NCBI RefSeq assembly: GCF_058153355.1 | Contig: NZ_JBLWLY010000002.1 | Length of the DNA stretch: 64,000 nt | Source: a plasmid | Direction: 5' to 3' (one strand) | Shown: piece by piece, positions 50,201 to 56,200 of the stretch | Numbering within the stretch: the stretch's first letter is position 1 | Layout: the number at the start of each line of letters is the position of its first letter | Made by a program: the position numbers

Positions 50201-53200
50201 GTTACCTGCCTCACTTCCCCGTGAAACCCGGGTCATCCGTCCGGAAGAGGAATGCTGCCCGGCCTGTGGTGGCGAACTCAGTTCTCTGGGATGTGATGTG
50301 TCAGAGCAACTGGAGCTTATCAGCAGCGCCTTTAAGGTTATCGAAACACAACGTCCGAAACTGGCCTGTTGCCGGTGCGACCATATCGTGCAGGCTCCGG
50401 TGCCTTCAAAACCCATTGCACGCAGTTATGCCGGAGCGGGGCTTCTGGCCCATGTTGTCGCTGGAAAATATGCAGACCATCTGCCGTTATACCGCCAGTC
50501 AGAAATATACCGTCGTCAGGGCGTGGAGCTGAGCCGTGCCACACTGGGGCGCTGGACAGGTGCTGTTGCTGAACTGCTGGAACCGCTGTATGACATCCTG
50601 CGCCAGTATGTGCTGATGCCCGGTAAAGTCCATGCCGATGATATCCCCGTTCCGGTCCAGGAGCCGGGCAGCGGTAAAACAAGGACTGCCCGGCTGTGGG
50701 TCTACGTTCGTGATGACCGTAACGCCGGTTCGGAAATGCCTCCGGCGGTCTGGTTCGCGTACAGCCCGGACCGGAAAGGTATCCATCCACAGAATCATCT
50801 GGCCGGTTACAGCGGAGTGCTTCAGGCCGATGCTTACGGTGGTTACCGGGCGTTGTACGAATCCGGCAGAATAACGGAAGCCGCATGTATGGCTCATGCC
50901 CGGAGAAAAATCCACGATGTGCATGCAAGAGTGCCCACCGACATCACCACGGAAGCCCTGCAGCGTATCGGTGAACTGTATGCCATCGAGGCAGAGGTCC
51001 GGGGCTGTTCAGCAGAACAGCGTCTGGCGGCAAGAAAAGCCAGAGCCGCGCCACTGATGCAGTCACTGTATGACTGGATACAGCAACAGATGAAAACACT
51101 GTCGCGTCACTCGGACACGGCAAAAGCGTTCGCATACCTGCTGAAACAGTGGGATGCACTGAACGTGTACTGCAGTAATGGCTGGGTGGAAATCGACAAC
51201 AACATCGCAGAGAACGCCTTACGGGGAGTGGCCGTAGGCCGGAAAAACTGGCTCTGTGTGTCACGAAGGAGTACTTATGGCAACAATGTGAAAATTGCAG
51301 CATAAGTTATCCATGCTCTGAGGTGGGTGGAGGTGGGCCCTCCGGTCAGGGTTTACAGGAGCACTGACCAAACGACCCGGTGCTGCTTCATTCTAAGGAA
51401 TGAGGTGGTGAGCGACTCGGGAAAAGGCAGAGATCTACTGTCACGTGGGGTTCGGGAAGCTGAACGAAAGTAAACTGTCCGATGAAGCATCGAAATCTTA
51501 GATGATGTCAAAATGGGGCCGTACAGCCGTCCCCTGATAAGCGCAGAAGACACCTGCTTACTGACTGCGCGGCATCCGGTGTGAAGGCAGCAGGATCCCG
51601 GGCCAGACCATCTCAGGGAACGTGAGAACCTGTTTCCGGCACGTATCGGGAAACAGGGGCGGACCCATTCGTAGTAGTGATGAAAGATCTGTAATGGGTC
51701 TGGAGCGAAGGGATGGGGATCACATTCATTGCAGAAGACACAACCCAAAAGGGGATGACGTAACTGATGCAACGAAAATCATTTGAAATACCAAAAGCAC
51801 TGGTCTGGGCATCATATCTGGATGTGCGTCGCAACAAGGGAGCCCCCGGATGCGACGGGCAGACTTTGAAAATGTTCGACCAGCAACGTGATGGCAATCT
51901 ATACAAGATCTGGAACCGGCTATGTTCGGGAACATGGTTTCCGCCACCAGTGCTGGAAAAACGGATCCCGAAGTCGAATGGCAAGGAACGCATTCTGGGG
52001 ATCCCAACAGTATCCGATCGAATTGCTCAGGGAGCGATAAAACTTTTCATGGAAGAAAAGCTTGACCCGATTTTCCATGCTGATTCATATGGTTACCGAC
52101 CAGGCAAATCAGCTCATGACGCTCTGAAACAATGTGCCATCCGGTGCTGGCGTTATAGCTGGATACTGGAAGTGGACATCAGTGCGTTTTTCGACCATGT
52201 GAGACATGATCTGGTGCTCAAAGCTCTGGAACACCACGGGATGCCTAAATGGGTCATCCTGTACTGTCGACGCTGGATGGAAGCGCCAATGCAGAGTTGT
52301 GAAAATGGAGAATTAATAACCCGAACACGAGGCACTCCGCAGGGCGGGGTCATTAGTCCACTACTTGCTAACTTGTTCCTTCACTATGCATTTGATTTGT
52401 GGATGGAAAGAGAATATCGGGGGGTACCGTTTGAGAGGTACGCTGACGATATTGTAGTACATTGTTCACGAATGAGTGATGCAACAAGGCTGAAGAACAG
52501 GTTATCGGAGCGCTTCTCGGAAGTCGGGCTGGTCCTGAATGCAGGGAAAACGAATATCGCCTACATTGACACGTTTAAAAGGAGAAACGTCGCAACGAGT
52601 TTCACCGTAAGCGGCTCGCCAGAACCGTATTGATATTTACTGAGAGCTCAGATCAACTTTCCAGGGCAACAGATCGCGTACCCGGTTTGCCGGCCAGTCC
52701 TGGATATGTTCAATGACGTAACGCAGCCACTTTTCTGGCTCCACATTGTTCAGACGGCATGTGCCGATCAGCGAGTACAACACCGCAGCATGTTCACCAC
52801 CGCTGTCAGAACCCGCGAAGAGCCAGTTTTTCCGGCCTACGGCCACTCCCCGTAAGGCGTTCTCTGCGATGTTGTTGTCGATTTCCACCCAGCCATTACT
52901 GCAGTACACGTTCAGTGCATCCCACTGTTTCAGCAGGTATGCGAACGCTTTTGCCGTGTCCGAGTGACGCGACAGTGTTTTCATCTGTTGCTGTATCCAG
53001 TCATACAGTGACTGCATCAGTGGCGCGGCTCTGGCTTTTCTTGCCGCCAGACGCTGTTCTGCTGAACAGCCCCGGACCTCTGCCTCGATGGCATACAGTT
53101 CACCGATACGCTGCAGGGCTTCCGTGGTGATGTCGGTGGGCACTCTTGCATGCACATCGTGGATTTTTCTCCGGGCATGAGCCATACATGCGGCTTCCGT

Positions 53201-56200
53201 TATTCTGCCGGATTCGTACAACGCCCGGTAACCACCGTAAGCATCGGCCTGAAGCACTCCGCTGTAACCGGCCAGATGATTCTGTGGATGGATACCTTTC
53301 CGGTCCGGGCTGTACGCGAACCAGACCGCCGGAGGCATTTCCGAACCGGCGTTACGGTCATCACGAACGTAGACCCACAGCCGGGCAGTCCTTGTTTTAC
53401 CGCTGCCCGGCTCCTGGACCGGAACGGGGATATCATCGGCATGGACTTTACCGGGCATCAGCACATACTGGCGCAGGATGTCATACAGCGGTTCCAGCAG
53501 TTCAGCAACAGCACCTGTCCAGCGCCCCAGTGTGGCACGGCTCAGCTCCACGCCCTGACGACGGTATATTTCTGACTGGCGGTATAACGGCAGATGGTCT
53601 GCATATTTTCCAGCGACAACATGGGCCAGAAGCCCCGCTCCGGCATAACTGCGTGCAATGGGTTTTGAAGGCACCGGAGCCTGCACGATATGGTCGCACC
53701 GGCAACAGGCCAGTTTCGGACGTTGTGTTTCGATAACCTTAAAGGCGCTGCTGATAAGCTCCAGTTGCTCTGACACATCACATCCCAGAGAACTGAGTTC
53801 GCCACCACAGGCCGGGCAGCATTCCTCTTCCGGACGGATGACCCGGGTTTCACGGGGAAGTGAGGCAGGTAACGGTTTACGGGCTGAAGACTGGCGCAGG
53901 GGAGATGGCAGTACCGGGTCATATTGCTCACCCAGCGTTTCCGCCATTTCTTCCTGAAGAGCGCTGATTCGCTCCTGTGCTTCCTGTATCTGCCGTTCGG
54001 TTTTTGCACGAAGTTTTTCTGAGCTTTTACCGAACTGCATGCGCTGCAGTTTTGCAACCAGCGCCTTCAGCCGGTTGATTTCGGAAGCATAAGCCGCCAC
54101 CCGCTGTGAGAGCAGGCGGTTGTATTTCGCCATCTGGCGGATGGTGTCCTGTTGCGTCTGCAACAGTGCCCGCAGGCGGGCATTCTCATGAGCAAGTGAG
54201 GTGTCCATATCCTCACTTTACAACGGGTTATATGCGGATGCCAGCGCGTTCCGTTCGTTTCGGGTGTTTCCAGTCGATGCCCTCAAGAAGCATGGATAAC
54301 TGGGCCGGAGTAAGGTGCACCTTGCCGTCACGGGTGACCGGCCAGACGAAGCGGCCCCGTTCCAGGCGTCTGGTGAAGAGGCACAGTCCGTCGCTGTCAG
54401 CCCACAGCACTTTTATCTGGTCACCCCGGCGTCCGCGGAAGATGAACAGGTGTCCGGAGAACGGGTCATCCTTCAGGACGTTCTGAACTTTTGAGGCCAG
54501 GCCGTTAAAGCCATTTCGCATATCGGTGATACCTGCAACCAGCCAGATACGCGAACCTGCAGGGAGAGATATCACCGTCTCAGCTCCTGTATAAGCAAGG
54601 ACAGCAGATTTTCATTCACTGCCCCGTTCAACCGAAGGGTGCCGTTTCTGAACGTAATCTCACAGGAGATGCTGTGTATTTCCGGTGTTACTGACGGTCT
54701 TGCGGTCAGTGGCTCATTAGCCGGAGCAGTTGGGAGTTGGGCATCAATAGTGACAGGAATTAACTGAGATTCTCTGCCTGATTCTGATGATGGCAATTTT
54801 ATCTTCCCCTGCCGCCATTTCTGACGCCATTTGAACAACAGATTGGCATTAATACCATTGTCCAGGGCCAGTCTGGAAATTGAAACACCTGGCTGGAATG
54901 ATGCTTCTATGAGTCGTTGTTTGAATTCAGGAGGATAATTCAGGCACCCTTTAGGCCTTCCCGGAGAGGCATTTTTTTGTATATCTGACATTTTTATCAC
55001 CCACTATTAATTTAGTGGTGGATACTTTGTCCAAAGCATCGGGAATTTGCCAGACGGTCCTGATAAGACGCTTACGTTTCACCTTTCTCGGATATGACTT
55101 CAAAGTGCGTACGCTGAAGAATTTCAAAGGCGAACTGTACCGAAAATGCATGCCGGGTGCGTCAAATGCAGCAATGCGCAAAATAACAGAAACAATCAAG
55201 AAGTGGCGTATACATCGCTCAACAGCTGAGAGTTTGCTGGATTTTGCGAGGCGCTACAATGCGATAGTGAGAGGCTGGATCGAGTACTACGGAAAGTTCT
55301 GGTCCAGAAATTTCAACTATCGACTGTGGAGTGCAATGCAGTCACGTCTGCTCAAGTGGATGCAGTCTAAATACAGACTTTCGAACCGGAAGGCTCAGCG
55401 AAAGCTGACGCTGGTAAGGAAGGAGTATCCGAAGCTATTTGTTCACTGGTATTTACTACGTGCATCAAATGAGTGATCAAGAGCCGTATGACGCGAGAGT
55501 GTCACGTACGGTTCCGTGAGCAGCCGGGGAGTGAAATTCTCTCCGGCTGACTCGACTCGCAGGTTCCGACAGCGGTGGCGAACATGCGGCGGTGTTGTAC
55601 TCGCTGATCGGCACATGCCGTCTGAACAATGTGGGGCCAGAAAAATGGCTGCGTTACGTCATTGAGCATATCCAGGACTGGCCGGCAAACCGGGTACGCG
55701 ATCTGTTGCCCTGGAAAGTTGATCTGAGCTCTCAGTAAATATCAATACGGTTCTGGCGAGCCGCTTACGCACTAACTGTAGTCTGAGTAGATAAAGACGG
55801 AGTAAGAGCAGCCACCGGTTCTTTCGGCTCATCCGGCGTTATCTCCACAGGTAATAATTCAACGCCAGTGTCAGAAGAGGTTGTTACCGGAAGACGCCGC
55901 GATATGCGCCCTTCGTTCTGCCAGAGCCTGAGCCATTTGAACAGCAGATTGGCGTTAATGCCATTTTCAAGAGCAAGTTTTGAGATGGATACCCCGGATT
56001 CACAGGAGGCAGAAACGAGCTGCTGTTTAAATTCGGGAGGATCATTAGGGCAGCCTTTTCGCCTGCCGGGAGTCACATTTTTCTGCATATCTGACACTTT
56101 GGTTCCCACTACTTATTTGGTGGACACCACTTTGTCTAATTCGTCAGATTCTGACCAGACGGTTCAGGCTGTACGCTTCCCCATGTGATTTGCCTCGCCA

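Follow-up and report, generated by a model that had tools for sequence, protein, structure and literature searches.

We find that a plasmid stretch of 64,000 nucleotides (contig NZ_JBLWLY010000002.1 of assembly GCF_058153355.1; hereafter the window) carries a group II intron, which we assign to E.c.I3, inside the transposase gene tnpC of an IS66-family insertion sequence (IS), here called copy A, and that this intron is itself split by a second IS66-family element, copy B. The three-level nest is real; its junctions are clean and its target site duplication (TSD) is exact, as had been read from the letters alone in an original prediction, and it resides on a Shigella-type (pINV-type) virulence plasmid. 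All coordinates of the nest were re-checked, and every one was confirmed apart from a start of copy A at 49106. Judging from sequence comparison, we consider it very probable that the region is a fossil stack of mobile elements, in which copy A is a recombinant and the intron has been disabled.

Anatomy of the nest

Copy B lies at 52607–55075 on the minus strand and is 2469 bp long, with GTAAGCG at both ends in inverted orientation. The octamer GTTTCACC directly abuts both ends, at 52599–52606, where it is intron sequence, and at 55076–55083, so that the flanking repeats claimed earlier are indeed present; two fixed positions would share an 8-mer by chance with a probability of 4^-8, about 1.5e-5. 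The genes tnpA (55000–54572), tnpB (54575–54228) and tnpC (54208–52637, encoding 523 aa) are all intact, and their products match the NCBIfam models for TnpC (NF033517, 479 bits against a cut-off of 180), TnpB (NF033819, 128 against 50) and TnpA (NF047595, 89 against 74). A protein identical to copy B TnpC is on record with the Pfam domains LZ_Tnp_IS66, zf-IS66, DDE_Tnp_IS66 and DDE_Tnp_IS66_C. Copy B also carries an empty E.c.I3 homing site, AAAAACTGGCTCT followed directly by TCGC.

Aligned with the reverse complement of copy B, copy A resolves into two exon blocks on the plus strand. Positions 49106–51255 correspond to copy B positions 108–2257, with 2150 of 2150 nucleotides identical, and positions 55557–55768 correspond to 2258–2469, with 205 of 212 identical. 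Because the two blocks abut in the alignment, the intron sits exactly between copy B positions 2257 and 2258, with no exon base lost or gained, and the divergence of the two copies after ...AAAAACTGGCTCT at 51255, where GTGTG begins, was located correctly. The 5′ block comprises the rest of tnpA, tnpB (49499–49846) and, at 49866–51255, codons 1–463 of tnpC plus one nucleotide, and it ends in GGCTCT, the intron-binding site 1 (IBS1). The 3′ exon supplies the last two nucleotides of codon 464, 59 codons, the stop (to 55738) and the right inverted repeat ending in GCTTAC at 55768, and it departs from copy B at exon positions +5, +11, +23, +32, +79, +89 and +110. Divergence from copy B is thus 0 of 2150 in the 5′ part and 7 of 212 in the 3′ part (Fisher p = 4e-8).

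The inserted block, 51256–55556, begins with GTGTG and ends with CTCGAC. Its first part (51256–52606, plus strand; intron nt 1–1351) holds domains I–III, the start of domain IV and codons 1–280 for the intron-encoded protein (IEP); its second part (55084–55556, plus strand; intron nt 1352–1824) holds IEP codons 281–410 and domains V and VI. The open reading frame (ORF) for the reverse transcriptase (RT), at 51767–52606, comprises exactly the 280 intron codons that had been counted in the original prediction, contains the YADD motif and continues for 8 codons into copy B. Deletion of 52607–55083, that is copy B and one repeat, leaves an intron of 1824 nt and restores the frame as foreseen, with an ORF of 410 aa reading ...ATSFT-FLGYDFK.... 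In situ, the RT/maturase ORF in domain IV is cut after codon 280 by copy B, and it is intact only when rebuilt computationally. Neither junction of the nest was found among the 72,556 plasmids of PLSDB or the 5,426 complete E. coli genomes searched, nor did an exact-sequence look-up in a large gene index find the 288-aa fusion ORF.

The left end of copy A lies outside the position first given for it. An IS4 element of 1426 bp (47680–49105, minus strand) interrupts tnpA there, and the 119 bp that seemed to be missing are found on its other side (47561–47679, plus strand), where the left inverted repeat (IRL) beginning GTAAGCG and the start of tnpA match copy B positions 1–119 at 119 of 119 nucleotides. 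A 12-bp target duplication, CTCTCCGGGAAG, flanks the IS4 at 47668–47679 and 49106–49117; copy B positions 108–119 therefore occur on both sides of it in copy A. Besides its length, this element has TAATGCC... inverted repeats at both ends, an IS4-type DDE transposase of 448 aa (47693–49039; NF033592, 304 bits against a cut-off of 115) and a duplication within the 11–13 bp range of IS4. A 5′ truncation of copy A at 49106 was rejected on this evidence. Copy A spans 47561–55768 and was entered twice independently, by IS4 in tnpA and by E.c.I3 in tnpC, and copy B lies within the intron; its whole 5′ arm, left end included, shows 0 of 2269 differences from copy B.

Comparison of the flanks of copy A (left TGCTGCGC, right GCACTAAC) revealed no 8-bp duplication of its own, which is consistent with a recombinant or rearranged copy. 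On the right, copy A abuts the remnant of a different IS66-family element (55769–56180, minus strand; IRL GGAAGCGT...), which is cut off exactly at that point. The remnant has 72% nucleotide identity to copy B positions 18–255, and its 114-aa ORF, a truncated TnpA, matches IS66 TnpA models below their cut-offs. Insertion of copy A into this remnant is unsupported, as there is no TSD and the remnant does not resume on the left flank.

Copy B has an independent counterpart, identical at 2469 of 2469 nucleotides, in another context in the E. coli draft GCA_047897835.1 (locus L032; ABXYKR010000031.1, 5017–7485), where it adjoins a SPATE-type autotransporter gene and F-type tra genes. No full-length match to copy B above 96% identity was found in PLSDB or the complete E. 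coli genomes, the best in PLSDB being 95.8% on E. albertii plasmids, and the 2469-bp element with its short tnpA may be an undescribed or rarely sequenced IS66-family isoform. A weak match (76%) to its tnpB region at 4126–4386 marks a further diverged IS66-family fragment in the window. A scan for promoters and terminators gave weak consensus matches only, including a terminator-like plus-strand site at 54955–54970 inside copy B.

The intron and its pairing with the exon

This intron is E.c.I3, of bacterial class D, at its known IS679/IS66 homing site. E.c.I3 has been described as a class D intron that targets IS679, with full-length copies of 1824 bp (Leclercq and Cordaux, 2012, PMC3522654; class label from their Table S2). 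The rebuilt intron aligns without gaps over nt 1–1824 to the E. coli 536 chromosome (NC_008253, 4007952–4009775) at 98.96% identity, and these coordinates are listed as E.c.I3-2b (PMC3522654). It is inserted in sense orientation after nt 1390 of tnpC, within the sequence of the empty site of copy B, and the surrounding protein motif, ...GRKNWL/F... with the slash at the intron, is conserved. The same tnpC site is occupied in every retrieved relative with a preserved 5′ junction. Matches to the rebuilt intron were present in 271 PLSDB records, widespread on E. coli and Shigella plasmids.

The structure of a group II intron is retained at both ends. Domain I is recognized by the Rfam model RF01999 (group-II-D1D4-2) at 51329–51445 with 91.9 bits over the full model length, and domains V and VI by RF00029 at 55479–55556 with 57.1 bits, the gathering scores being 36 and 40, respectively. 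The domain V hairpin predicted at 55481–55514, 34 nt long, folds as expected, with tnpC sequence resuming at 55557, and domain VI shows a single unpaired (bulged) A in its 3′ strand in the minimum free energy fold. The boundaries, GTGTG at 51256 and ...CTCGAC to 55556, agree with the group II consensus 5′ GUGYG...AY 3′. The rebuilt IEP of 410 aa scores 393.9 bits with TIGR04416 (cut-off 300) and matches Pfam RVT_1 and, over residues 311–385, the maturase X domain GIIM; it ends 25 residues past the GIIM match, its codons and stop running to 55476, and Pfam gives no HNH or endonuclease match. The same 410-aa protein is found uninterrupted in public assemblies by exact-sequence look-up. Two outcomes had been named beforehand as able to overturn the nest, and both were looked for: the covariance search detects domains I and V, and the 8-mers flanking copy B are identical.

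Intron copies on Shigella pINV plasmids in PLSDB are 99.6–99.7% identical to the rebuilt intron but begin only at intron nt 37. The copy on pWR501 (L001, NC_002698.1; locus 4518-4696/4693) shows 7 differences (6 substitutions and 1 gap) across 1788 shared nucleotides, 99.6% identity, and a 554-bp deletion with a 4-nt overlap at its joint connects tnpC, at the equivalent of window position 50737, to intron nt 37. Copies of this type have been named E.c.I3-tr2, and the fragment on the Shigella virulence plasmid was described as one that "lacks 37 bp and 900 bp of the host IS679 in 5'" (PMC3522654). As the pWR501 deletion removed sequence that is preserved here, the window represents this intron lineage more completely.

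A hairpin loop at intron nt 260–279 (51515–51534) holds the sequence ACAGCC (nt 268–273, 51523–51528, plus strand), complementary to GGCTGT, which we take as exon-binding site 1 (EBS1). The 5′ exon in the window ends in GGCTCT, with which five of the six EBS1-IBS1 pairs form, leaving a C.C mismatch at exon position −2. We compared 23 other copies, from plasmids, the E. coli 536 chromosome, metagenome contigs and contigs encoding an identical IEP, the metagenome contigs having been found by a pattern scan that left both covarying positions free. Exon position −2 and intron nt 269 are complementary in 22 of the 23 (Fisher p = 6.9e-5, a value that overstates the evidence because related copies are not independent, although the compensatory change is still seen in several different contexts). 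Sixteen copies combine G with C, as in ACAGCC/GGCTGT (L002, L006, L009–L013, L015, L017, L018, L020, L026–L029 and L031), and six combine C with G, as in AGAGCC/GGCTCT (L005, L007, L014, L016, L021 and L033); a G/G combination is found in none, and the sole mismatched copy besides the window, with C/C, is a metagenome contig (L019).

The compensatory change at these two positions in the relatives supports the assignment of EBS1; EBS2 and EBS3 were sought in the intron and were not identified. We propose, with better support than exists for the RNA-based reading considered below, that E.c.I3 exists as two target-specificity variants, with EBS1 ACAGCC or AGAGCC, that track a CTG/CTC polymorphism in tnpC, which is synonymous for TnpC as position −2 is the third base of a leucine codon. 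By this pairing, the intron in the window is predicted to adjoin an exon of the "wrong" type, and the empty site in copy B would be mismatched to this intron variant likewise.

The window also contains the 5′ fragment of a second, different group II intron (approximately 63420–63885, plus strand; start GTGTGCCACGAAGG), about 73% identical to E.c.I3, with RF01999 at 63481–63599 (116.9 bits). The fragment ends near 63885, no domain V follows in the window, and it is probably one of the pINV intron fragments listed by Leclercq and Cordaux (PMC3522654).

Origin of copy A and fate of the intron

Copy A was also compared with a metagenome contig (L026; ENA ERZ27263863, k119_254082) that carries an uninterrupted intron identical to the rebuilt one at 1824 of 1824 positions. 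Its 3′ exon differs from that of copy A at 1 of 212 positions, its 5′ exon at 29 of 1269 (2.3%), position −2 included (Fisher p = 1e-11). Exon position −2 in L026 is G, which matches its EBS1, and is the L026/copy A difference nearest to the intron on the upstream side. The right flank of L026 differs from that of copy A, so the two do not represent the same locus. In the terms of the RNA-based reading considered below, the switch falls exactly at the 5′ boundary of the intron: the exon is of the recipient type up to −1, and donor-type sequence takes in the intron and, in the 3′ exon, at least +5 to +110. Copy A is therefore very probably a recombinant, made of a B-type 5′ arm and of an intron and 3′ exon of the L026 type, and the switch lies between −2 and the intron. 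The original prediction had offered gene conversion or a mosaic origin for the uneven exons; the mosaic part holds, while gene conversion from copy B is one of several routes and probably not the best.

Two IS copies that both bore the intron most likely gave rise to this arrangement by a homologous crossover that joined them within it, which would be the most economical route. We favor it because intron-bearing relatives have a long left module, because copy A has no TSD, and because B-type copies are identical across strains. In the relatives for which left parts were available (5 of 5 loci), the tnpA module is of the long ISCro1/IS679 type and never of the short B type. Conversion is not required for B-type copies to be identical, given the independent 2469/2469 copy in E. 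coli GCA_047897835.1.

Gene conversion in cis is an unlikely alternative route, by which copy A would once have been the L026 element and the nested copy B would have templated its 5′ arm up to the border of heterology at the intron. Large inverted repeats in cis are good conversion partners; the arm is identical to copy B through −1, the short 3′ exon would have escaped, and the first upstream difference from L026 falls at −2. It also counts for this route that the other exchange in cis, a reciprocal one by two inversions of the inverted arms, was rejected, copy B being still identical to the independent L032 copy. The 2.2-kb arm of copy B is inverted and 1.35 kb away, and import of GGCTCT from it would create the EBS1 mismatch. 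However, the B-type character of copy A extends to its short tnpA module and IRL (positions 1–501), where the long module of the relatives is non-homologous, so that almost no homology would be available on the left side for conversion, and the missing TSD of copy A would be left unexplained; B-type copies are, moreover, identical across strains anyway.

We regard it as quite improbable that a B-type IS with this 3′ end already in place was the direct target of retrohoming by the intron, the −2 mismatch notwithstanding, with no later recombination and with the resemblance to the L026 3′ exon reflecting a general mosaicism of IS66-family ends. Such mosaicism is strong among E. coli IS66-family copies: some intron-free copies have 3′ alleles of the "intron type" (for example L022), the 3′ end of copy B also occurs on an otherwise 96%-identical element (L024), and L019 shows that a C/C mismatch is not confined to the window. 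Against this stand the linkage of an identical intron (1824/1824) to nearly the same 3′ exon (211/212) in two differing contexts, for which a single inherited block of DNA is the simplest account, and the matched EBS1-IBS1 pairing in 22 of the 23 other copies, which suggests that mismatched homing is rare. Nor did any intron-free copy exceed 98.6% identity to the joined exons of copy A among about 1500 plasmids covering the site. A rule by which the 3′ exon always accompanies the intron was rejected: in intron-bearing copies this exon departs from that of copy A at 4–10 positions, and the same alleles also occur in copies free of the intron. We give very little credence to a further reading in which E.c.I3 entered the B-type IS by an RNA-based event that carried 3′-exon sequence along (3′-exon co-conversion in retrohoming), be it through reverse splicing or reverse transcription of a lariat-3′-exon intermediate or of unspliced precursor RNA. 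To our knowledge, co-conversion of the 3′ exon by an endonuclease-less class D intron lies outside the accepted bacterial pathway of retrohoming.

It would be very surprising if misassembly or the polishing of repeats had produced the second, inverted IS66 copy in the intron or made the two arms perfectly identical. Assemblers are prone to error at 2-kb repeats with 100% identity, the nest junction is absent from the 72,556 plasmids and 5,426 genomes, and the fusion ORF is without record in the gene index. On the other hand, the exact 8-bp repeat, the restored 410-aa ORF and an intron identical to that of an independent contig are unlike a chimeric join, and the differences in the 3′ exon were kept rather than homogenized. 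Several points do weigh against the recombinant history that we favor. The order of events and the route of recombination depend solely on comparing sequences, and L026 covers just 1269 nt of its 5′ exon and does not reach the left module of its element. An intact E.c.I3 IEP elsewhere in the same cell could act in trans. Finally, a long inverted repeat (here 2.15 kb at 100%) is a structure that assemblers and polishers can distort, a concern that the exact TSD and the exact restoration of the frame argue against.

The history that we propose begins with copy A carrying E.c.I3 in sense at the usual tnpC homing site. The sister 2469-bp IS, copy B, transposed into intron domain IV at RT/maturase codon 280, duplicating GTTTCACC, and from established group II intron biology this is expected to have cost the intron the protein needed for splicing and retrohoming. 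IS4 struck the tnpA of copy A, probably afterwards, with its 12-bp duplication. As to the composition of copy A, the B-type IRL, short tnpA, tnpB and tnpC up to −1 would have been joined to the intron and 3′ exon of another E.c.I3-bearing IS66 element, most likely by the homologous crossover described above.

The intron now appears to be triply disabled, by the lack of an IEP in cis, by a 2.5-kb antisense IS in domain IV and by the mismatch to the 5′ exon. The earlier view that it is dead as a retroelement can be sustained for its action in cis, the ORF being broken by the insertion of copy B alone. Full-length TnpC is not expected from copy A in the absence of trans-acting help for splicing of the intron; the truncated product of copy A has 463 native residues and 16 from the intron, with the C-terminal 60 residues lost, and the predicted product of splicing would differ from copy B TnpC at one residue, E490G. 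The suggestion that splicing could restore tnpC in this copy is largely moot, as IS4 parts tnpB and tnpC from the left end of the IS and a C.C mismatch exists at −2. Nothing in the sequence suggests a working system: the host copy A is separately broken by IS4, and copy B is the only intact element and is predicted to supply an intact transposase.

Plasmid context and known relatives

The nearest relatives of the plasmid in PLSDB are S. sonnei pINV plasmids, with 99% identity and a different arrangement and gene order, and no PLSDB record covers at least 80% of a 24-kb query. To the left of the nest, the window contains a spa40-like type III secretion gene (42817–43845) and the istA/istB genes of an IS21 element (45249–47218). 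To the right lie icsA (56743–60051, minus strand), the small RNA RnaG (60070–60189, 158.5 bits), a virA-like ORF (60544–61782) and the ALIL frameshift pseudoknot of a decayed IS3-family element (62241–62357).

Published work already covers the intron, where it homes, how it decays on pINV plasmids and the insertion of ISs into E.c.I3. The collections searched did not contain this exact nest, and the recombinant host copy and the EBS1-IBS1 covariation add a little to what is known. We consider the importance of the locus to be mostly low, since a dense load of insertion sequences and decayed introns is a known feature of Shigella-type virulence plasmids, and a pile-up of this kind is ordinary. 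Its modest value is that of a worked example, in which every junction of a four-element nest can be read and the intron keeps its entire 5′ end, unlike its truncated counterparts on the reference pINV plasmids. Taken with the related copies, it would illustrate how one compensatory change in EBS1-IBS1 can naturally retarget a group II intron, and how DNA recombination between intron-bearing IS copies could strand an intron beside an exon that it no longer matches. Such stranding fits the published drift of enterobacterial group II introns to inactivity (PMC3522654).

In its length of 1824 nt, its homing site in the tnpC of IS679/IS66-type elements, its IEP, which has RT and X domains and lacks an endonuclease domain, and its residence on Shigella-type virulence plasmids, the window intron resembles known E.c.I3. 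Unlike the usual pINV copy, E.c.I3-tr2, which is without its first 36–37 nt, it keeps both ends intact, and it differs from known E.c.I3 in being split by an IS66-family element, in occupying a shorter, 2469-bp IS66-family host and in having an EBS1 mismatched to its 5′ exon. Copies interrupted by an IS are on record, namely E.c.I3-tr1 on the E. coli E24377A plasmid and the S. boydii Sb227 copy of E.c.I3-tr2 (PMC3522654, supplementary table). These share with the window the order IS, intron, IS, an E.c.I3 in an IS66-type host later struck by another IS, but they are truncated or have internal deletions, whereas the junctions in the window are complete and include a TSD. The supplementary text of PMC3522654 and the absence of the window junction from PLSDB indicate that these are separate insertion events. 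In the window, moreover, the inserted IS is of the same family as the host, and it carries a 5′ stretch of 2,257 bp, the homing site of the intron included, that matches the arm of the host.

Copies A and B share with IS679 and ISCro1-type elements (about 2.7 kb) the gene order tnpA-tnpB-tnpC, GTAAGCG ends, an 8-bp TSD (in copy B) and approximately 96–97% identity over tnpB-tnpC, and they differ in their length of 2469 bp and in their first 500 nt, where the tnpA module is short and non-homologous. A further parallel is RmInt1 in ISRm2011-2 of Sinorhizobium meliloti (PMC3035460, PMC4238363), which is also a class D intron that parasitizes an IS in the orientation of the transposase gene, encodes an IEP without DNA-binding and endonuclease (D/En) domains and recognizes its target by EBS-IBS pairing. 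The host of RmInt1 is an IS630 rather than an IS66 element and its sequence is another, and RmInt1 is experimentally active, whereas the copy in the window is disrupted.

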